Below, piece after piece: positions 30,039 through 39,180 of a stretch of 41,294 bases of DNA (position 1 is the first letter of the stretch; every line of letters begins with the position of its first letter). The position numbers and the translations under genes were made by a program. The notes beneath the pieces were generated by a model. That model saw only the letters and a list, made by a program, of their open reading frames with translations. It searched no databases and was not told the DNA's origin. Location of the stretch: the NCBI GenBank assembly GCA_045863395.1, contig BTVJ01000064.1, forward strand, positions 1-41,294. The letters run 5' to 3'. This stretch comes from Myxococcales bacterium (GTDB taxonomy: Bacteria > Myxococcota_A > UBA9042 > JABWCM01 > BTVJ01).

Positions 30039-30311
<273 letters not shown>

Positions 30312-31292
30312 TCATCCGGCTGCGGCTCGGCCGTCCATCACCTCGGTGCGCAGGCGCGCGACGCGGGTGTCAATGGCATCGCGCGGGCCCCGGTCCCCCG
30401 GCCCCTGGGCAGCCATGGCCTCTTCGAAGAGCGACAGCCACCGCTTGAGCGCCCGGGTCTGCAGGCGAACTCCGCGCGCGCCGAGAAGCTGGAAATCGTC
30501 TGGCGCCACCATGCGCCGGTTGATCACCGAGAGCGTGAGCCGGTCGACGACGCGCACGCGAAAGGGCTCGATGACGTCCAGGGCCAAGGACGACCTGCCG
30601 TAGCGGACGCCATGATAGTACCCGACACGGGGGTCGAAGCCTGCCGCCTCCAGCCGCCCCGCGATCTCGCTGGCGAGCAGCGTGTAGCCGAGGTTGAGCA
30701 GGGCGTTGACCTCGTCCTCGGCCGGGTGGCGCGAGCGCCGCGTGAAGGCGAAAGGCGGCCTCACCATCGTGGAGAACCCCTCGAACCAGGCGGCTGCGGC
30801 CGCTCCCTCGATTCCCCGGAGGGAGTCCAGGTCCGCTGCATCGGCGCAGCGAGGGACTGCCTGGTCGAGCCGCACGAGCACCCCGTCGAGCACCGGGGCC
30901 GCGTCGGGGTGGTTGCGGCGGTACCGCTGCGCGTGCTCCCGCGCCCCCCGAATCTTGTCGGTGACCAGCCCCTTCGCGAGCGCCAGCCGGAAATCCTGCT
31001 GCGTGTAGCGGGCGTGCTGGGCAAGACGCAGGAAGACATTGCCCGACTCAGGCCCCACGATCTGGCCCCGGTACCGCCCCTGGGACGAGAGCAGCACCAC
31101 GGAGACCCCATGGCGCAGGAGCAGCGCGATCGCCTGCGTCGTGAGCTGGACGTTCCCCATGAGCACGACCCGGTCCAGCTCGTCGGCGGCCCAGCGGTCG
31201 AGCTCCTGACGGTCGACGGAGACGGCGATCTGGGCGGCCGACCGGTGGATGCGCGCCCCCTGGTGAGTCACGTAGACGACCTTGCGGACCAT
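30312..31292 (-). CDS. cas1: CRISPR-associated endonuclease Cas1
   Basis: LRGIEGAAA, VNALLNLGY, GFDPRVGYYH and LALDVIEPFR motifs; catalytic E, H and D residues are present. Confidence 0.96.
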   Translation of the reverse strand: MVRKVVYVTHQGARIHRSAAQIAVSVDRQELDRWAADELDRVVLMGNVQLTTQAIALLLRHGVSVVLLSSQGRYRGQIVGPESGNVFLRLAQHARYTQQDFRLALAKGLVTDKIRGAREHAQRYRRNHPDAAPVLDGVLVRLDQAVPRCADAADLDSLRGIEGAAAAAWFEGFSTMVRPPFAFTRRSRHPAEDEVNALLNLGYTLLASEIAGRLEAAGFDPRVGYYHGVRYGRSSLALDVIEPFRVRVVDRLTLSVINRRMVAPDDFQLLGARGVRLQTRALKRWLSLFEEAMAAQGPGDRGPRDAIDTRVARLRTEVMDGRAAAG

Positions 31293-31320: not shown

Positions 31321-33846
31321 TCAGGCCCATTCGTGGTTGGTGACGGGAGCCACGAGGACCCCGGCGCTGCCTGTCGCGGGGCCGGCTCCTGCCTGCGCCG
31401 CGCGCATCCCCGCGGGCACCTCTTCGAGGCGGGCGATGATCGCCGCTGGGACGGCCTGCGAGGCGGGCGCCGCAGAGGACGTCGCCGCGGGCGTGGCTTC
31501 CGGCCCGGGGCGAGGCGCTGGACGCCCAGGGCTGTCCCGCCACGCCCGCAGGAACCCTCCCGCGTGAAGGAGCGGCGTCGGAAAGCCCCCCCGGCGAAGA
31601 CGCTCAGAGAAGTCGCAGCGGCAGTCGGGCGCCAGCTCCGGGTGCTTGTCCTGAAGACGCCGGCAGCCGATGGGGACCGCGGTCAGTCTGCCGATGTGCC
31701 GCTGCGTCTCGGCCACGTCGTAGTTTCGGCACTTCCCGATGATCGCATGGATGGCGCGCTCCCCGTGAGTCCCCAGGTGCCCGAGCGAGTGAAGGAGGCT
31801 CGTCCGCTCATGGTGCGTCAGGTGGCCTACCATGGCGCTGCGCCGCGCCAGTCCGCTCAGGAGCTGGCAGCCGCTCATCACCCGCGCCACGCCGGCGCCA
31901 AAGCTATCCATGGCGGGCAACGCCGCGGGCACGAACACGCTCTCTCCCGTCGGGCGAGGGGAAGCAACAGGCAGCGGGAGGGCAGAAGGACCACCACAGA
32001 AGATCCCCTCGAGGGTCGGTGAGACGCTCGTCCCATCGTCCCACGTCAGGTGGCTCCGCCGACCGGTGCCGCGGTGGACGCCGAGCGGGAGCGCCATCAC
32101 GCGGTCATGGGCGTCGGTGGCCTCGTCGCCGGCAGGAAGCGCCTCCAGGGTGACAGCACCTCCCGCGTCCCCTGCACGGCGGCACCACTCCGCCACCAGT
32201 CGTGCCACGTCTGCCGCGCACACGCGGCCTTCGAGGGGGATCCACACATGAGCGCCGCGGCCCCCGGTGTCTTCCACCAGGAACCGGACGCCCGCCTGGC
32301 GCAGAGCAGTACCCAGGGCTGCGACGGCCACATCTATCGGATCGCGGCCGTCACGAGGCCCGTCGATGTCGATGACGGCAAGCGTGCAGGCGCCGTCGTC
32401 GAGGCGCGGAGCCACCGCCAGGCGCTGGCGGCCCATCAGGTGCTCTCGCACATCGGGCGGCCCCGGCGGACGGCTGACCCGCACGTACTCTCCCTGGCCG
32501 GCAGCAGTGGGCTCCCACACCGCGAACCAGGACGCGCCCGCGCAGAACAAGGCGAGCCAGGCGTCCACGGCGTCGTCGTCGATGGCCGGATCGGGGGACG
32601 GCTCAGAGGTCGCGGGCGTATCAGTCCGTGCCATGGCCTCCTGCCAGGCTGCCTGCGCGCCCTCGAAGTCTCCTCGAGCGGCCAGGCTCTCTGCCTGATC
32701 CAGGAGCGCCGCCACCTCCCCGCGGGCGTCCTCGGGAGCGGGGTCGTCGGTCTCGGGCTCCGTCTCCCCCGGCTCCTCGGCCCACTCGGCGCGCGCCTCC
32801 TCGTCGAGGTCGGGCTCGGGCGCATCGGGGTGCTGCCCCAGACGCTCGTGCAGCAGCTCCCGCGCCACCCGGTCATGGACGCCGAGGGACGTCCCTGGAG
32901 GGAGCGGCGTATTGAAGTACTGGGCCCACCCGCGGATGATGGGCTCGATGCGCTCGCGGAGGGTCGCGGTGGGAGTCGCAGGCTCCTGATCGAGGCGCGC
33001 CCGCAGCGACTCGAGCGCCCCTTCGCTGGCCCGGAAGCCACGCGCGCCGACGACGAAGCCGAGCCACGGGAAGCCCTCCGACGCGGCGATGACCTTGTCG
33101 GACCCGGCCTTGACGGAGAAGCCGCGCCGAGAGAGCTCCGTGCGGAACAGGCCCAGGGCACGCTGGGCCTCCGCAGATGTCGAGGCCACGGCGCACAGGT
33201 TGTCGCTGTATCGCAGGAAGCTGAGGCCAGCGTCCTCCATCGCCCGGTCAAAGCGGGTCAGCGCCAGGTTGGCCAGCGACGGAGACAGGGCGCACCCTTG
33301 GGCGAGTCCCACTCCAGGACGCGTGGCGTGGGCGTGGAGGAGTGACGCGACCAAGCTGTGCACATCGGCATCGACGAGGTGGCGCACCTCGTCGAGCAGG
33401 GCGGGCAGCGGCACCGTGTCGAAGAAGTCGCGTATGTCCGCGATGGCCGCCCACCCCAGGCCTTCGGAGACGCGGCGAGAGACCAGCTCCACGGCGTGTC
33501 GGGCCGACTTCCCCCGCCGGTAGGCCCAGGCGGCCGAGGAGAGCACGCGCTCGATGCGTGGGTCGACCACGGCGCGGAGCAGCTCGACGACGACGCGATC
33601 ATCCACGGTCGGAACGGCAAGGCGTCGCATCCCGCCACCCGGCTTGCGGATTCGATGGCGTGCAAGGGGCCCCGGGCGCCAGGTGCCGCTCTGGAGGCGC
33701 TCGGACAGCTCTGCCGCGCGCGTCTCCCGGTCCTGGCGCCACGCAGCAGGTGTCACGCCGTCGGCGCCGGCCGCGGCGCTGCGGCGCGCCACGGTCTCGA
33801 ACGCCAGCTCGATGGCAGCAGGAGTCATCCGGTCGCGCAGGGCCAT
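31321..33846 (-). CDS. Reverse transcriptase fused to CRISPR-associated primase-polymerase (RT, TPR-like helix, AEP, Cys-rich PriCT-like domain; CART-CAPP-like), with a disordered tail ending HEWA
   Basis: RT: IRKPGGGMRRLAVPTVDDR, ADIRDFFD, AQGCALSP, YSDN, FPWLGF. AEP: VIDID, EDTGGRGAHVW, ALPLGVHRGTG. C-terminal Cys domain: CQLL...KCRNY...PIGCRRL...CRC...PTPL. Lies immediately upstream of cas1-cas2. Confidence 0.88.
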   Translation of the reverse strand: MALRDRMTPAAIELAFETVARRSAAAGADGVTPAAWRQDRETRAAELSERLQSGTWRPGPLARHRIRKPGGGMRRLAVPTVDDRVVVELLRAVVDPRIERVLSSAAWAYRRGKSARHAVELVSRRVSEGLGWAAIADIRDFFDTVPLPALLDEVRHLVDADVHSLVASLLHAHATRPGVGLAQGCALSPSLANLALTRFDRAMEDAGLSFLRYSDNLCAVASTSAEAQRALGLFRTELSRRGFSVKAGSDKVIAASEGFPWLGFVVGARGFRASEGALESLRARLDQEPATPTATLRERIEPIIRGWAQYFNTPLPPGTSLGVHDRVARELLHERLGQHPDAPEPDLDEEARAEWAEEPGETEPETDDPAPEDARGEVAALLDQAESLAARGDFEGAQAAWQEAMARTDTPATSEPSPDPAIDDDAVDAWLALFCAGASWFAVWEPTAAGQGEYVRVSRPPGPPDVREHLMGRQRLAVAPRLDDGACTLAVIDIDGPRDGRDPIDVAVAALGTALRQAGVRFLVEDTGGRGAHVWIPLEGRVCAADVARLVAEWCRRAGDAGGAVTLEALPAGDEATDAHDRVMALPLGVHRGTGRRSHLTWDDGTSVSPTLEGIFCGGPSALPLPVASPRPTGESVFVPAALPAMDSFGAGVARVMSGCQLLSGLARRSAMVGHLTHHERTSLLHSLGHLGTHGERAIHAIIGKCRNYDVAETQRHIGRLTAVPIGCRRLQDKHPELAPDCRCDFSERLRRGGFPTPLLHAGGFLRAWRDSPGRPAPRPGPEATPAATSSAAPASQAVPAAIIARLEEVPAGMRAAQAGAGPATGSAGVLVAPVTNHEWA

Positions 33847-33854
33847 GGTTCACC

Positions 33855-34226
33855 TCAGACGTCGATCAGCTCTCCAAACTCGTCGATTCGGGGCATGCGC
33901 CGGGGCGCAGGCTGGGGGGGAGTCGGCGGACTCTCGGGCGGGAGCCGCGTGACGGACTCGACGCGCTGCGCAGAGGCGCGCTCAGCCACCCGACGAGGCT
34001 CGGGGCATGCAGGCGTGCCGCTGAGCGTGGTGCGCTCACGACGTCCCGCTTCCTCCTGCGCGGCGACCCACCGCCCGATCACGTGACGCAGCCGTCCGAA
34101 CTCCTGGGCCACGCGGGAGTCCACGCGCTGAACGGCCACGAGGGTTGCGATGCAGAGCCCACAGCAGGCGAGGACCAGCACGATGGCGAACCCCGTCAGC
34201 ATGGCCACGTCCGAGACCTCAGTCAT
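33855..34226 (-). CDS. Small single-pass membrane protein of unknown function
   Basis: One hydrophobic helix (MLTGFAIVLVLACCGLCIATLVAV), a Pro-rich tail, and C-terminus RIDEFGELIDV. It has an SD and an 8-nt overlap with the E1 stop. Confidence 0.7.
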   Translation of the reverse strand: MTEVSDVAMLTGFAIVLVLACCGLCIATLVAVQRVDSRVAQEFGRLRHVIGRWVAAQEEAGRRERTTLSGTPACPEPRRVAERASAQRVESVTRLPPESPPTPPQPAPRRMPRIDEFGELIDV

Positions 34227-35370
34227 CGCCCCCTCCGCAGACCGGGCACTCGGGCCAGCGCTCCGCCTGCACGACCAGCCGATCCAGCGGCTCCTCGAAG
34301 ACCCACGTCTCGGGCTCCATGGTGACGAACATCAGGTTGCCCCGCTGCTCGCCGTGTGAGAACCACGGGTCGACTGGCGCCCCGGACACGAACACGAGCG
34401 CGAGGCGCGCGGCGATGGCCGTGCCCAGGGTCACGTTCACCGGGAGCGCCGGGACGCCGCGGGCGGGGGCAGTCTCCACGGCGTAGGGCTGGAGCGAGCC
34501 CCTCACCGGGGCATGGCGGCCGCCCTCTGCGTAGGTGGAGCAGAGGTGGCACGGCCCCTTCGCGGCGTCGGTGACCAGCTCGATGCGGACGCTGGCCGCC
34601 AGGTCCGAGAAGGCCACATACAGGGTCGGAAACCCGAGGCGCGCGGCCAAGCCGTTGACGACGGCCCGGGAGTCGCGGGTGTCCGTGGCGACGACCACCA
34701 GGTCCGGTCGAGCCGTCTGGAGCAGGTCGGAGAACGCCACCGCATCCCGCACGACGTTCAGGGCGTGGCCTTCGACACGTGCGCCGGGAACCGACGCACG
34801 GACGGCGTCTCTCCAGACCAGGGCCTTCCGGCGCCCCACCGAGGAGGGCGAGACCATGAGTCCCCACCGGACCAGGTTCTCTGTCTCGAGCCGCTCGGGG
34901 TCCACGGCATGGACCGCCAGCCCGAGACGCGCCAGCCGTGTGGCGAGATCGGAGCCCACGGAGCCGGTCCCCACGACGACGACGGTCTTGCTCGACAGGG
35001 CGTCGGCTCCGGGCACCCCACGAACGCGGTCCAAGTATTTGGACTCATCGACGACGACGACGTCGATGGGCAGGCCGCCTTGGGTGGCCACCGCATCGCT
35101 TGCGCGGAGCACGATGTCGCTCGTGTCGAAGGTGGTACCGGGCATCAGCACGACCCCGAGGCGCTGGTCGAGGGTCGGGTCGGCGGAGACTGCCTGGACG
35201 CGGTAGATGGGGCCGTCGTCGGCCGGCTCGACGGAGCCGTAGAGGGCATGTGGAGTCGAGGTCGCGGCCAACCGGGCCACATCGAGCAGCTTCGCGGAGA
35301 TGACGAGCGCACCTGGGGAACGCCTCGACCGCGACTCGATTCGGTGGATGTACTCGTCCAGGGTCGTCAT
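34219..35370 (-). CDS. ThiF/E1-like adenylyltransferase with N-terminal extension
   Basis: VVVVGTGSVGS, VDPERLETENLVR, GRRKA and ATDTRDSR motifs; Zn-binding CHLC and CPVC. Confidence 0.9.
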   Translation of the reverse strand: MTTLDEYIHRIESRSRRSPGALVISAKLLDVARLAATSTPHALYGSVEPADDGPIYRVQAVSADPTLDQRLGVVLMPGTTFDTSDIVLRASDAVATQGGLPIDVVVVDESKYLDRVRGVPGADALSSKTVVVVGTGSVGSDLATRLARLGLAVHAVDPERLETENLVRWGLMVSPSSVGRRKALVWRDAVRASVPGARVEGHALNVVRDAVAFSDLLQTARPDLVVVATDTRDSRAVVNGLAARLGFPTLYVAFSDLAASVRIELVTDAAKGPCHLCSTYAEGGRHAPVRGSLQPYAVETAPARGVPALPVNVTLGTAIAARLALVFVSGAPVDPWFSHGEQRGNLMFVTMEPETWVFEEPLDRLVVQAERWPECPVCGGGDD

Positions 35371-35373
35371 GGC

Positions 35374-36345
35374 TCACCTCCCATCGAGGAAGCGCCCGAG
35401 GGCGCGAAAGAAGTCTGCGAGCGTGCGCCGGGGCCCCCCCGGCACCTGGTAGTCCGCCCGCGTCAGCGCGACGGGCGCGTGCTTCGTGGCTGTGTGCTGC
35501 GGGCCGTCCAGAGCCTCCGCGACCAGATCATCCAGGCGATGGAGGCTGCTCCAGCCGTGCCGAAGCGGCACAGCGGAGAGCTGACCGTGCACGTCGCCGC
35601 GCAGCACCAGGGGGGCTCCCACGGGATATTCGGGAGGAAAAACCACGGAGACGCTCACGCTGCCGCTACGAATCTGAGCTGCCAGGGGCCCGCCGGGTGG
35701 GGCCACGGGTTGAACAGTCGCGTGGAAGCGGCGCCGGATGGACTCCAGGTCGCTCTCGACCCGAGCAGCCGCAGCGTGCCGGAACGTCGCCGCGGCCACC
35801 GGCTCGATCTCTCGGAGCAGCTCCGACAGGGGGGGCAGAGTCTCCAGGGCCGCCGCGGCGGCCGCCTCGCCATCGTCGATTGCCATGACGGGCACCTGCT
35901 CCACTTGGGCGCCCCAAGAGCCGGTGTCACTCGCCACGAAGCCGAGCACGGAGGGCGGGTTGCCCGGCCGACCGGTACCAAGGACCAGCACGAGGTGACT
36001 GCGGCGCTGTTCGCCGTCGCGCAGGATGGACGTCGCAGTCGCTCGATCCGTCTCGGAGAGATACGGCATCCAGAAGGGATGCACGTGCCAGTCGCCCACG
36101 TACGTCGCACCTTGGATGCGCCTCTGGATGCTCGCGATCATCCGGCTCTGCCAGGCGCCGTCGGTGACCACGTGGGACCCTCCCGTCGAGGCCGCCGGAC
36201 CCGCCGGCAGCGCATAGAGCAGGACCGTCTTCCCCGGCAGCTCGAGGGCGACCAAGGACCCCCCGGCCTCCACCTTGTCGCGGAGACCGTCCTGGACGGC
36301 TCGCTCGACGACCTCGAACGCCGACTGGGACATCAGAACATTCAT
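35374..36345 (-). CDS. JAB/MPN (JAMM) metallopeptidase fused to a Cys-less E2/UBC-like domain
   Basis: EAGG...YVGDWHVHPFWMPYLSETD fits HxH-x7-SxxD. The C-terminal RVESDL...VVFPPEYPVGAPLV...WSS resembles the UBC fold. ATG 36345 follows GGAGG. Confidence 0.85.
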   Translation of the reverse strand: MNVLMSQSAFEVVERAVQDGLRDKVEAGGSLVALELPGKTVLLYALPAGPAASTGGSHVVTDGAWQSRMIASIQRRIQGATYVGDWHVHPFWMPYLSETDRATATSILRDGEQRRSHLVLVLGTGRPGNPPSVLGFVASDTGSWGAQVEQVPVMAIDDGEAAAAAALETLPPLSELLREIEPVAAATFRHAAAARVESDLESIRRRFHATVQPVAPPGGPLAAQIRSGSVSVSVVFPPEYPVGAPLVLRGDVHGQLSAVPLRHGWSSLHRLDDLVAEALDGPQHTATKHAPVALTRADYQVPGGPRRTLADFFRALGRFLDGR

Positions 36346-36400
36346 CGCGCCTCCGATTGAGTGGTAGCCGATGGACAACGCGGGTTGAACCGTGGTCGGG

Positions 36401-36820
36401 TCAGACCCAGACGCGCCCCGTCTCCTTCCACTCCTCGTAGTGAAACAGCCAGGCCGACACCCACGCGAGCAGAGTGACGATGGTCGACCGCCTGGTGAAC
36501 GCCTCCCCATGGTCCAGGCAGAGAGAGCCGTCGATGAACCGGTGAGGGGTGTTGGCTGGGAGATCCGGCTCGACGATGTGGGCGACCGGCATGACCCCGT
36601 CGCCGTAGTTTGGTGGCAGCGCCACGAGGATCCGGTACGCAGCCCGCAGAGAGCGGTTTGGTCCTACGATTCCCGTGGCGTACGTGATGCCGTTGTGGTG
36701 GACGTCCACGGTGAACCCTGGGTACTCCTGGGCGAGCACGTCTCTCTCCATGAACAGTCGCTCGCGTCCCTCGGGCGTCTCCCAGAACTGTCCAACTGCT
36801 GCCCAGACGTGCGCGCGCAT
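36401..36820 (-). CDS. Prokaryotic E2 (ubiquitin-conjugating-like) protein
   Basis: RERLFMERDVL, YRILVALPPNY, PHRFIDGSLCL (putative catalytic Cys101) and AWLFHYEEWKETG. GGAGGTG precedes ATG 36820. Confidence 0.82.
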   Translation of the reverse strand: MRAHVWAAVGQFWETPEGRERLFMERDVLAQEYPGFTVDVHHNGITYATGIVGPNRSLRAAYRILVALPPNYGDGVMPVAHIVEPDLPANTPHRFIDGSLCLDHGEAFTRRSTIVTLLAWVSAWLFHYEEWKETGRVWV

Positions 36821-36822
36821 GG

Positions 36823-37071
36823 TCACACCTCCACCAGAGAGGCGAAGTCGCACTTGGACTCGCTGGCGTCGATGCAGGCACCACCCCACTCGTGATCCTT
36901 CATGCTCACGCCCGCAGGAGCTTTGCCGTCTGGAGCGTGCTGCGACGGCTTTCCGGCGCTGGCGTGTGGAGCGGCGTGGGCGGGGTCCACGGCGACCATC
37001 TCACCGTTGACGATGCGGACTGACCCAGCCTCCTTGAGGTGTCTGCGGAGCTCCTCGATGGTCTCGTTCAT
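36823..37071 (-). CDS. Small 82-aa protein, candidate modifier/substrate peptide (contains HEWGG)
   Basis: GGAGG SD, GC3-rich codons, stop 2 nt before the E2 start; first gene of the operon. Alternative start at 37086. Confidence 0.7.
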   Translation of the reverse strand: MNETIEELRRHLKEAGSVRIVNGEMVAVDPAHAAPHASAGKPSQHAPDGKAPAGVSMKDHEWGGACIDASESKCDFASLVEV

Positions 37072-37140
37072 TTCCCGCGCCTCCATGCCTCGATGAGGGT
37101 CTCAGATTGGCGCGACCGCACCCTCGGCCACGCACGGTAC

Positions 37141-37428: not shown

Positions 37429-39180
37429 GTGGGACGGGATTGCGGAGCAGCAGGCGCGACAGCGGGCTCAGTCAGCCCTCCGGGTGCGCGAGGGCACCAC
37501 GGGCCACCAGGCGACGCAGAGCACGCAGACGAAAGGCGCGGGCCACGGCTCCTGCGGTCGCAACCGGGCGCGCATCCCTTCGCGGGCGCCCCGGAGTACG
37601 ACGATGCCGCAGCAGTGATCGGCGCAGAGGAGCCCAGCACGCGACGTCATACCGGGGACCTCGACCCCTCGGACGATGACGCGGCAGCAGCGACCGGCGC
37701 GGAGGAGCCCCGAACGTGGAGGGAACTGCAGGGTGTGCTGGCAGCCGCGCACGTCCTGTTCGGGGCGACGCGCACGGGCGCGGCGCAGCGCGCTCTGGAG
37801 GACTTCCACGGTGTCCTCATGCGCATCCCGCACGAAGGCTGCCGGGACCCGTCATCGCTCTGTCGCCGACTCAGGGACAAGTCGGAGATCTGTCCAAGCC
37901 GGATGCGCGCGTGGGTCGCTGCGGCCATTGGGACCGCGGCCGGGGACTCGGCCTCCCTCCCCTCAGCGTCCCTCTTCCGACGACCCGACGACCTGCTCCT
38001 GGACTTGAGGGAGGTGGAAGCGCTGGCGCATCGCAACCGGCGGTCGTGGTCACCCACGCTCGGCGCCGACCTCCAGCAGGCGGCCCGCCGCGCCGTGAGC
38101 GTGGCCATCGACCGCAAGGCGGCGCTTTGCCGCTCACGGCGTCCTCGCCGCGCCGGCAGCGGAGTTGTGCCGGACCTTGATCGCGTCGCATCGTGGCTCA
38201 GTGACCACCCCAAAGTTCATCGCATGGACCACGCTTCGTTCGTATACGAGCGCATCGACACCATCTGCGAGGTTCTCGACAGGACCCTGGACCGTGGCGC
38301 CCACGCCCCGCTCGCGGCCATGGCATCGGCAGCGGCGCCCCACCTGATGGTGCTCGAGCGCACGGCCATCCTCCGCCGCCTCGCGGAGGCCGTGTCAATG
38401 ACCAGCGCGGACGGGACCCGCACGTGTACCGCCCTTTGGGCCCTGACGGACCTCGTCGGAGCGCACCTATATAAGGATGGCGACCTTGACCAGCTCGGCC
38501 ACGCGGTCCTCAACGACGATGTGAAGCGCTGTATCGAGGACCAAGCGCACGGGGTGGAGGCGCGCGCAAGAGACACCGCAACGGCATCCAAGAGCCGCGC
38601 GCTCCGCCCCATCCTCCTCGCCGTCGCAGCCTTCGAGCGACTGCGTGGACTGACCGCGCATCGCGCCGGGGCCGACCTCCACGTCGTTCTGCACCACCTG
38701 TCCCGCGCCAAAGCACACGCGCTCGATGCATCCCACGAGACCTTGCAGGTCGCCCTCGTAGCAGACGAGTCCGTGGTGCGCCGCGCCCACGGACAGACGG
38801 CGGAGGCCATCGCGTCGCTGGCCCGGGCCCTCGTCATCGCCAGAGGGCACCGCAACCACCGCATGCGCTTCGTCCTTCATCGCGAAGCCGCCTACACCTG
38901 CGCACAGCACGGAGCCCCGCTCCTCGCCCTGGAACACGCCTCGCTGGCGCACGAGACCCTGGACATCATCGACGACCTGTGCGAGATCCAGGTCCAGGGC
39001 CGCATGCGCCCCGGGTGGTACCAGCCCAGCTTCCGCGCAGAGCTGAAGAGGCTCTACGCAGACCTCGAAGGAGCGGGCGTCGCAGTCGAAGCGCTGCAAG
39101 CATCCCACCCCGCCGCCGCCGAGAGCCGTCGTCCGGAAGCACCGACCGACGGCTCGAGGCGTTCCCAACTGAACCGCTAG
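37429..39180 (+). CDS. Hypothetical alpha-helical protein (TPR-like C-terminal half); start uncertain
   Basis: Long ORF that fills the gap between the operon and the CRISPR leader; Ala/Leu-rich helical repeats (AEAIASLARALVIAR, LALEHASLAHETL). Confidence 0.55.
   Translation: MGRDCGAAGATAGSVSPPGARGHHGPPGDAEHADERRGPRLLRSQPGAHPFAGAPEYDDAAAVIGAEEPSTRRHTGDLDPSDDDAAAATGAEEPRTWRELQGVLAAAHVLFGATRTGAAQRALEDFHGVLMRIPHEGCRDPSSLCRRLRDKSEICPSRMRAWVAAAIGTAAGDSASLPSASLFRRPDDLLLDLREVEALAHRNRRSWSPTLGADLQQAARRAVSVAIDRKAALCRSRRPRRAGSGVVPDLDRVASWLSDHPKVHRMDHASFVYERIDTICEVLDRTLDRGAHAPLAAMASAAAPHLMVLERTAILRRLAEAVSMTSADGTRTCTALWALTDLVGAHLYKDGDLDQLGHAVLNDDVKRCIEDQAHGVEARARDTATASKSRALRPILLAVAAFERLRGLTAHRAGADLHVVLHHLSRAKAHALDASHETLQVALVADESVVRRAHGQTAEAIASLARALVIARGHRNHRMRFVLHREAAYTCAQHGAPLLALEHASLAHETLDIIDDLCEIQVQGRMRPGWYQPSFRAELKRLYADLEGAGVAVEALQASHPAAAESRRPEAPTDGSRRSQLNR

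Follow-up and report, generated by a model that had tools for sequence, protein, structure and literature searches.

The 41,294-nucleotide contig BTVJ01000064.1 of a Myxococcales bacterium (assembly GCA_045863395.1), which we call the window, carries on its minus strand an operon with the gene order small open reading frame (ORF), E2, JAB, E1, membrane protein, reverse transcriptase (RT)-primase-polymerase, Cas1 and Cas2. The subject of this analysis is the small ORF at the head of the operon (36823..37071; 82 codons plus the stop TGA at 36823-36825), which may encode the precursor of a small protein tag; features of the window are on the minus strand unless noted otherwise. The small ORF is followed by an E2 of 139 aa (36401..36820), which has a UBC fold and its catalytic Cys in DGSLCLD (PADLOC E2, 1.3e-17) and is colinear with the fused forms described below. 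Next come a JAB/JAMM peptidase (35374..36348; PADLOC JAB, 4.4e-10; Pfam Prok-JAB, 7.2e-4, below the cut-off), the predicted processing enzyme, whose JAMM motif HVHPFWMPYLSETD (HxHx7SxxD) is intact, and a ThiF-type adenylating E1 (34219..35370; Pfam ThiF, 2.6e-20; PADLOC E1-E2, 3.2e-23), the predicted activator of the tag in view of a complex model. In 12 further loci with DNA of sufficient extent, module, E2, JAB and E1 follow one another in this order.

We assigned the start of the 82-aa form to the ATG at 37071-37069, in agreement with the start of all homologs, which read M-[ND]-x-x-x-[IL]-E-E. This ATG follows a GGAGG ribosome-binding site (37080..37084), read from the sequence, after a spacer of 8 nt. 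The ORF listing gives a longer frame of 87 aa (36823..37086), and its start at 37086 was rejected, since no ribosome-binding site precedes it and the second Met is where the homologs start. At its 3' end the gene reads CTG GTG GAG GTG TGA. Because the GGAGG of the E2 (36828..36832) lies within these last codons and the E2 ATG (36820) comes two bases past the stop (TGA, CC, ATG), the two genes are translationally coupled. The G+C content of the small ORF at the three codon positions (0.68/0.48/0.80) is like that of the flanking genes, with third-position values (GC3) of 0.82-0.93, and the pattern is missing in the other five frames. No sequence variants were found within the small ORF in the sequencing runs examined, and no sigma-70-like promoter or terminator was found between 36950 and 37450. 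A frameshift or read-through that would connect the small ORF with the E2 was also weighed and dismissed: the frames differ, the combined product would have an insert of ~24 aa that no relative has, and no slippery site was seen. With its own GGAGG, coding-type GC3, coupling to the E2 and homologs, the ORF is confirmed, at the coordinates of the preliminary description and on the minus strand, as a real and conserved coding unit.

Metatranscriptome contigs (X12 and X14) cover 35614-37112 and 35922-37123, reaching across JAB, E2 and the small ORF. Both end 41-52 nt upstream of the small-ORF ATG, and the DNA contig runs on to 37400. The small ORF would then be the first gene of the transcript, with the contig ends at 37112-37123 perhaps marking the transcript 5' end. 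This is only a weak hint, because strand and level cannot be read from the contigs and DNA may have been carried over; both informative RNA libraries come from one study, and the uncovered stretches in runs X15 and X17 carry no information.

A word-based search with the small ORF returned P0002 as the sole 82-aa homolog (73% identity), and a single-protein locus search of genome contigs found no relative and was redone with alignment A1. A genome search with the E2 found the module and the E2 in frame within one protein, of 194 aa at locus L002 (genome G040) and of 184 aa at L003 (G001). With the fused protein as query, the window small ORF aligns to residues 5-67 (41% identity, E 5.6e-7) and the window E2 to residues 50-194. 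Sixty-five database homologs of the fused protein comprise 46 with module and E2 in one chain, 15 E2-only proteins that start just past the motif GVxVKPHEWG ending the module, and 4 aberrant sequences (P0048, P0056, P0057, P0067). Where the DNA of the loci was read, 9 are fused (L019, L020, L022, L023, L024, L025, L026, L032, L034) and 8 are split (the window, L021, L027, L028, L029, L035, L037, L038), L027 and L035 being near-identical. Finally, a profile of 17 modules gave 20 matches at E<=1e-3 among 1.84 billion protein representatives, 12 of them stand-alone small proteins that keep the motif; such proteins were found by the profile and not by a word-based search for short stand-alone homologs with residues 1-64 of P0003. 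The family is rare, and wherever its records are named they are Myxococcota metagenome-assembled genomes. Read as a relationship between genes, these alignments show the small ORF to be the split-off N-terminal module of the E2. The preliminary description had taken it for a leader gene; it is no orphan of that kind, and in most relatives it is the N-terminal part of the E2 itself.

To place the splits, we used a tree of E2 domains with 62 rows, 44 of them fused and 18 split, in which the status of database-only split rows is an ORF call alone and from which P0031, P0041, P0044, P0046, P0048, P0049, P0056, P0057 and P0063 were omitted as chimeric, truncated, frameshifted or missed by the regular expression. 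The tree needs 11 changes between fused and split forms, at least 3 of them forced by well-supported branches. By this tree, module and E2 have come apart on at least three independent occasions, each time directly after GVxVKPHEWG. In the window, the E2 opens with 8 residues, MRAHVWAA (36797-36820), that repeat the motif in degenerate form, and P0057 holds two copies within one frame (MKPHEWGAG ... RAHEWSA). Because the E2 start repeats the motif, the split in the window probably arose with a duplication of the junction.

Two further arrangements were seen around such E2 genes. At L034 (2787-3923, = P0046), a 308-aa ORF joins module and E2 directly to the C-terminal half of Cas1 (Pfam Cas_Cas1, 1.8e-26); JAB, E1 and RT are missing between E2 and Cas1, and the locus is probably an operon deletion derivative. 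Distant E2 genes with about 30% identity are preceded by small ORFs in a similar layout, at L013 1265-1462 (G284) and at L012 about 1896-2153 (G051). These have a helix ISELEKILEQ, a hairpin VPVEILPNGEIRAL, a linker and then ...MREDLGGEY or ...HDPHGEY, and a design with a small head-linker-motif gene before the E2 may be wider than this family.

Within the small protein, the elements listed in the preliminary description were all found letter for letter: NETIEELRRHLKE, VRIVNGEMVAVD, an A/P/H-rich stretch, HEWGG and ACIDASESKCDFASLVEV with two Cys. Residues 5-15 (37027..37059) are predicted by AlphaFold2 to form an alpha-helix, IEELRRHLKEA, with R9 and L12 invariant in alignment A2 and with E1 contacts in the complex model. 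Residues 17-28 (36988..37023) form a predicted beta-hairpin, SVRIVNGEMVAV, with G23 invariant; the lowest-error E1 contacts are at 15-18, 20 and 23. A disordered A/P/H/G-rich linker follows (residues 29-53, 36913..36987), which varies in length and sequence among homologs. Then comes the tail motif GVSMKDHEWG (residues 54-63, 36883..36912; family consensus GVxVKPHEWG), whose G63 is the predicted mature C-terminus. Residues 64-82 (36826..36882) are an unconserved extension of 19 aa, GACIDASESKCDFASLVEV, the last codons of which hold the E2 ribosome-binding site.

Across the 17 rows of alignment A2, K58 is invariant, H60 and W62 are conserved at >=90%, and the conserved Gly (G63) is G in 14 and A in 3. 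In the N-module of the 44 fused forms, R10, G24 and H59 are invariant, and M1, E7, E8, K12, L13, R14, G16, V21, G53, V56, K57, P58, W61 and G62 are conserved at >=90%. The family consensus reads M-x-P-x-R-I-E-E-F-R-R-K-L-R-E-G-R-P-V-R-V-V-x-G at the head and G-V-x-V-K-P-H-E-W-G at the tail. In the fused forms a linker of 15-40 residues lies between head and tail, and 1-15 variable residues lie ahead of the E2 core. Through G63 the window protein shares 55/63 residues with P0002, and 5/19 after it; P0002 reads HEWGD, with Asp at the position of G64, and has lost both Cys. Because the first Gly is the conserved one and G64 is Asp in P0002, we take the extension to be 19 aa and the predicted cut to fall after G63. 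The preliminary description had correctly noted an extension with two Cys after HEWGG; its length is 19 aa and not 18, the conserved Gly is G63, and neither tail nor Cys is conserved.

Structure prediction agrees with this division. AlphaFold2 with a 17-row alignment gives the window protein a helix at 5-15, strands at 17-21 and 24-28 and coil elsewhere (mean predicted local distance difference test, pLDDT, 63.7). In a fused relative (pLDDT 82) it gives a helix at 3-14, strands at 19-22 and 25-28, disorder at 29-66 and an E2 core with pLDDT 93-98, which Foldseek matches to UBC enzymes (1q34_A, E 9e-5). A beta-grasp was seen in neither model. The small ORF has no family match in Pfam, PADLOC or NCBIfam (Pfam at E<=1 gives only an insignificant DNA ligase), and an Atlas search gave no match to a ubiquitin-like protein (Ubl) family and no usable feature, the structure matches coming from a very poor model (pLDDT 0.37) and being disregarded. 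The conclusion that the module is a helix, a hairpin and a disordered linker and not a beta-grasp holds in both predictions, and the corresponding proposal of the preliminary description was borne out by them.

The junction after the conserved Gly has the look of a boundary that is cut. The Gly ends the near-invariant GVxVKPHEWG, is conserved at >=90% in the 44 fused forms and is flanked by variable linkers. Stand-alone proteins extend 0, 0, 2, 2, 2, 3, 4, 5, 6, 11, 11 or 19 residues past the conserved Gly/Ala, and these tails have no common sequence. The extension is 0 in P0074 and in the G046 protein (...KPTTWA) and 19 in the window and P0002, and it is 2 in six split loci (L027, L028, L029, L035, L037, L038) and in three representatives, P0069 being the L038 protein. 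Judged from these homologs, the post-Gly extension is shown to be dispensable. The residue after the Gly is A in 32 sequences, S in 10, T in 6, G, V and R in 4 each, M in 2 and D in 1; it is never Pro (0/65), an absence that is suggestive only, because the sequences are related. By contrast, Pro is seen 2-16 times at every position from +2 to +8, and it fills 186/744 positions in the 12 residues ahead of the motif. The resemblance of the junction to a processing site is suggestive. There are precedents for such processing in bacteria: in Type I Bub, the Ubl is always made as the Ubl-E2 fusion BubAB, and the JAB domain of BubCD cuts immediately past a conserved Gly (PMC11601596), and in Bil the JAB protein BilC pre-processes BilA (PMC10557695).

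The tail motif is also found at the end of another protein of the operon. The RT-primase-polymerase (31321..33846; 841 aa) unites a reverse transcriptase with a primase-polymerase of archaeo-eukaryotic type (Pfam matches RVT_1 and AEP-TOTE, and, below the cut-off, the NCBIfam model CRISPR-associated primase-polymerase A1), and its C-terminus in the window reads ...APVTNHEWA-stop, with H-E-W-A at 31324-31335. The ends are ...GIPPHDWA-stop in L019, ...GLPPHEWA-stop in L027 and L035, and ...ETLPHDWA-stop in L038; the RT of L020 reads ...LLPPHRWA plus 9 residues, the distant L022 is without the motif, and L023 is cut by the contig end. In sum, [PN]-H-[ED]-W-A is the exact C-terminus in 5 of 7 complete RT-primase-polymerases, with one further case of motif plus 9 aa and one distant locus without it. 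The G001 operon (L020) has Arg and Ala in both the E2 arm (KNHRWA) and the RT (PPHRWA), one case of co-variation. Across this 8.77-Mb genome, H-[DE]-W-[GA]-stop is matched at the RT end and nowhere else, and the reversed control pattern gave 2 and 1 matches. This comparison of protein ends shows a tail motif common to the module and the RT-primase-polymerase C-terminus. Homology of the whole tail is not claimed, because the profile match between the two is weak and limited to the motif. In at least 6 distinct loci, the module is located within a set of CRISPR adaptation genes and has its tail in common with it, and the order E2-JAB-E1-(membrane protein)-RT-PrimPol-Cas1-Cas2 is found in L019, L020, L027, L035 and L038, in L023 up to the contig end, and more distantly in L022. 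The G046 operon (L021) consists of the small protein, E2, JAB and E1, with no RT or Cas genes; there, the stand-alone small protein ending TWA is the only credible ORF with such an end. Because the motif stands at the RT end and is unique among the ORF ends of the genome, the RT itself is suggested as a substrate of E1, E2 and JAB, and by analogy with the CD-NTase (cGAS/DncV-like nucleotidyltransferase) of type II CBASS (an antiphage signaling system that is based on cyclic oligonucleotides) it is probably a second substrate of the same three enzymes.

We modelled a complex of three partners, namely the E1 (10-row alignment), the small protein truncated to residues 1-63 (17-row alignment) and ATP. 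The interface score ipSAE was 0.79, 0.80 and 0.80 in three runs, and the best of 3 controls gave 0.00; that mark is reached by 116/157 solved complexes and 2/215 mismatched pairs, a calibration that is rough here, as our model used its own alignments and included ATP. The three runs agree in >=90% of contacts, with partner pLDDT >=70. The tag touches the E1 with head residues 5, 8-9, 12-13, 15-23, 25 and 30 and with tail residues 55 and 57-63. On the E1 side, the contacts are at 134 and 136-139 (the GxGxxG nucleotide loop), 228-230 (a conserved A-T-D), 252-256 and 260-262 (region 252-262) and 339-370; G134, G136, S137, V138, A228, D230, W356 and F358 among these are invariant or nearly so in the E1 alignment. 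The model supports, but does not show, that the module docks on the E1 and brings its tail to the adenylation site.

Our preferred explanation, which we regard as evenly poised between right and wrong, is that the small ORF encodes the precursor of a JAB-processed, E1-activated tag that is not a beta-grasp, akin to the Ubl-E2 pre-protein of Bub. The modifier would be 63 residues long, its head formed by helix and hairpin and joined through a disordered linker to a tail that ends in KDHEWG, followed here by a throw-away extension of 19 aa. As read from the sequence, the small ORF would be translated from its own ribosome-binding site, in coupling with the E2. By analogy to BubAB and BilA, JAB would then cut after G63, or at the tag-E2 junction in the fused relatives. 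In the modelled pose, the head would dock on the E1 while the tail, once free, would reach into the adenylation site and become adenylated; the tag would finally pass to the catalytic Cys of the E2 and from there to a target amine. The preliminary description had proposed such a Ubl substitute, with JAB removing the part after the Gly. Its view of the fold stands, and the remainder is supported, though unproven, by the near-invariant Gly motif, by the E2 or the tails of 0-19 aa that follow it, by Pro at 0/65 junctions, by the BubAB precedent and by the E1 model.

Several points weigh against this explanation. Cleavage, adenylation, transfer to the E2 and conjugation are steps that we infer, and no target is known for the tag. 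The head is small, and in the monomer models its confidence is only about 70 pLDDT. The sequences counted at the junction are related, so that 0/65 and similar counts overstate independence, and gene fission at a domain boundary would likewise leave variable tails, free of any cleavage. P0074, the single stand-alone protein ending exactly at the Gly, is possibly cut by a contig end. A module profile run against 6 RT C-termini aligns only the last ~12 residues, and weakly (E 0.001-0.6). As for the complex, a free C-terminus was chosen for the model, in which a true substrate and a decoy look alike, and the tail-in-groove pose may partly be model memory of solved E1-Ubl and Cap2-CD-NTase complexes.

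The main rival, which we think doubtful but worth serious attention, sees in the module a decoy or docking arm that stays unconjugated: it would bind the E1 (or JAB) through its RT-type motif and never be activated. It might recruit the E2 to the E1, or compete with the RT tail and so tune conjugation of the RT, acting as a separate subunit in the split genomes. This would suit the 46/65 homologs in which the module is just a stretch of the E2 chain. Its motif is a copy of the RT C-terminus, an end that on its own suffices to make the RT the true substrate; the complex model shows E1 binding and no chemistry; and the MRAHVWAA at the N-terminus of the window E2 cannot be a C-terminal substrate. 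However, the modelled tail end touches the ATP-binding loop and the catalytic Asp region, which is hardly possible for an internal, uncleaved motif, and the Gly, the small and never-Pro next residue and the stand-alone forms ending at or just past the motif look like a processing site. In addition, the RT-less G046 operon keeps the small protein ending TWA and has no other candidate substrate, and the BubAB precedent (PMC11601596) also speaks against a decoy.

Two other possibilities are, in our estimate, very improbable. The small ORF could be a functionless remnant of a fused E2 gene broken by duplication or insertion, with an upstream frame that is open but idle. This would account for the two copies of the motif in the window (KDHEWG in the ORF and RAHVWA where the E2 begins), which are separated by an unconserved insert, and for the similar doubling of P0057 within one frame. 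Against it, 55/63 residues are kept relative to P0002 compared with 5/19 in the tail, the ORF retains its own ribosome-binding site, its coupling to the E2 start and coding-type GC3, and split forms with an intact module occur in at least 3 lineages. Just as improbable is a cryptic or incomplete beta-grasp, namely a truncated ThiS/MoaD-like fold of helix, hairpin and strand-like GVxVK tail that is completed on the E1 or another partner. The order of helix, hairpin and Gly-ended tail recalls the second half of ThiS, and the head contacts the E1 in the model, but Pfam, NCBIfam, PADLOC and Atlas gave no Ubl family match, and two AlphaFold2 models have one helix and one hairpin only, with a Pro-rich, length-variable linker of 25-40 residues. 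The suggestion in the preliminary description of a precursor of a ribosomally synthesized and post-translationally modified peptide (RiPP), with the two-Cys peptide after GG as released product, is scarcely credible: the leader-GG-core look is confined to this one sequence, the reading fails because the two Cys are not conserved (the tail has diverged even in the 73%-identical P0002, where both Cys are gone), most homologs lack such a peptide, having tails of 0-11 aa or the E2 directly after the Gly, and a Pfam scan of 26 window proteins gave no family for RiPP modification or export.

The proposed tag precursor can be compared with known conjugation systems. It shares with Type I Bub BubAB (Ye, Gong, Chambers, Corbett 2024; PMC11601596) a modifier N-terminal of the E2 in one chain (in the fused relatives), a Gly at the junction and an operon JAB, and modifier genes of both kinds, stand-alone and fused, are found in the wider family. 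Unlike in Type I Bub, the window gene is split, the modifier-E2 chain being found in 46/65 homologs and 9/17 loci read. The modifier here is a 63-residue arrangement of helix, hairpin, linker and motif, whereas that of Bub is made up of between one and three beta-grasp domains. An invariant E2 Cys is seen here in 44 sequences (C157) and is present in the window DGSLCLD, whereas Bub is described as using oxyester chemistry (PMC11601596). Furthermore, JAB and E1 are separate genes and not the JAB-E1 fusion that marks Bub, DUF6527 (BubE) has no Pfam or PADLOC match among the 7 operon proteins, and the operon continues into RT-primase-polymerase, Cas1 and Cas2. With BilABCD, a ubiquitination system directed against phages (Chambers et al. 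2023, PMC10557695; Hor et al.), the system shares the order of modifier, E2, JAB and E1, and the Bil JAB exposes the C-terminal Gly of its modifier; in contrast, BilA is a beta-grasp Ubl and BilD a two-domain E1 of canonical type.

The enzymes of the window score best against the PADLOC models named E2, JAB and E1-E2, and matches to NCBIfam Cap3 (E 0.0017, far below the cut-off) and 6A-MBL cap2_3 are weak and below cut-offs. In type II CBASS with Cap2/Cap3 (Ledvina et al., Jenson et al. 2023), E1 and E2 are likewise thought to activate the C-terminus of an operon protein that is not a beta-grasp, and JAB to reverse or trim the product. In contrast to CBASS, no cyclase or effector was found in the operon, the PADLOC model 'Cyclase' PDLC00816 matching the E2 only over its E2-like end (421-535). 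Here, E1 and E2 are separate genes with no Cap2 fusion, the enzyme substrate is accompanied by a small dedicated module that has the same tail, and the partner is a CRISPR adaptation polymerase.

A conserved Gly followed by a partner or a short unconserved extension, together with a dedicated protease, is also typical of eukaryotic Ubl precursors such as ubiquitin-ribosomal protein fusions and the propeptides of SUMO, NEDD8 and Atg8, from which the module differs in fold, tail motif (HEWG and not of RGG type) and host. Pup, to which the module had been likened in advance, is a small and largely disordered tag of about 60 residues that is recognised through a short helix and a C-terminal motif; its C-terminus is GGQ or GGE, and it is the glutamine-synthetase-like PafA/Dop, not E1/E2, that ligate it via a side-chain carboxylate. 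The likeness is a loose analogy, and tail motif and ligase type differ: the tail here is HEWG, the ORF has no Pup family match, and no PafA/Dop-type ligase was found among the 26 window proteins scanned. With beta-grasp Ubls (ubiquitin, BilA, BubA, ThiS/MoaD), the module has in common a conserved, exposable C-terminal Gly in a context of E1, E2 and peptidase, and it differs from them in fold and in having no family match. By these comparisons the module would act like a Bub or Bil modifier served by CBASS-like enzymes, and it is not a beta-grasp. To our knowledge, every E1/E2-type conjugation system described to date relies on a beta-grasp modifier or, as CBASS does, on a large enzyme's C-terminus.

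As a wider and more tentative proposal, which we think somewhat less likely than not, the Myxococcota module may be a dedicated mini-ubiquitin of 63 residues without a beta-grasp, produced as the leading part of its E2 or from a gene of its own, released by JAB and activated by the E1 through KPHEWG, with the same E1, E2 and JAB conjugating the RT and with spacer acquisition under ubiquitin-like control. With the RT as second substrate, the conjugation system would act on, or compete with, a CRISPR adaptation enzyme. If this is true, a docking head and a Gly-ended tail are all that the E1-E2-peptidase machinery requires, which bears on the origin of ubiquitin-like tagging. The shared tail and the location in an adaptation module point to a post-translational control of spacer acquisition that is undescribed in the literature searched. 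That literature held no description of the module, nor of E1, E2 and JAB linked to RT-PrimPol-Cas1-Cas2, and the supplementary operon tables of the Bub and Bil papers might list such operons; a term search of the available text of the CRISPR-associated primase-polymerase (CAPP) paper (PMC8211822) gave 0 occurrences of ubiquitin, ThiF or JAB.

Further features of the operon and its surroundings deserve mention. The JAB carries an extra C-terminal domain of ~140 residues (35374-35800), VVFPPEYPxGAP...PLRxGWSSLHRL, that is conserved in L019 and L020 and is without a Pfam match; its YPxxxP pattern recalls, as we presume, UBC/UEV/RWD folds. Between E1 and RT lies a single-pass membrane protein of 123 aa (33855..34226) ending RIDEFGELIDV, with a similar C-terminal motif in L019 and L021. 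Small single-pass membrane proteins of this kind are found between E1 and RT (window 33855-34226; L019 7711-7986) or, in the RT-less G046, after the E1 (L021 9270-10232), and share a C-terminal R-[IV]-[DN]-x-[FY]-G-E-[LI] (RIDEFGEL, RVDAYGEL, RVNQYGEI, RINGYGEI); they may be an anchor or a target. Cas1 (30312-31292; its family has a Pfam match in P0046) and Cas2 (30039-30308) are the last genes of the operon (30039..31292). The genes left of Cas2 are housekeeping genes, and no cas effector genes were found in the window. On the other side, a CRISPR array of at least 26 repeats of about 37 nt, spaced 73-80, runs from 39363 to the contig end (39363..41294; strand not assigned). Between the array and the small ORF, a divergent ORF of 583 aa (37429-39180, plus strand) without a family match is homologous to a divergent 508-aa ORF of the G001 operon (L020 12657-14183; 24% over 435 aa, E 1e-19), and to judge by this homology it is a conserved accessory gene.

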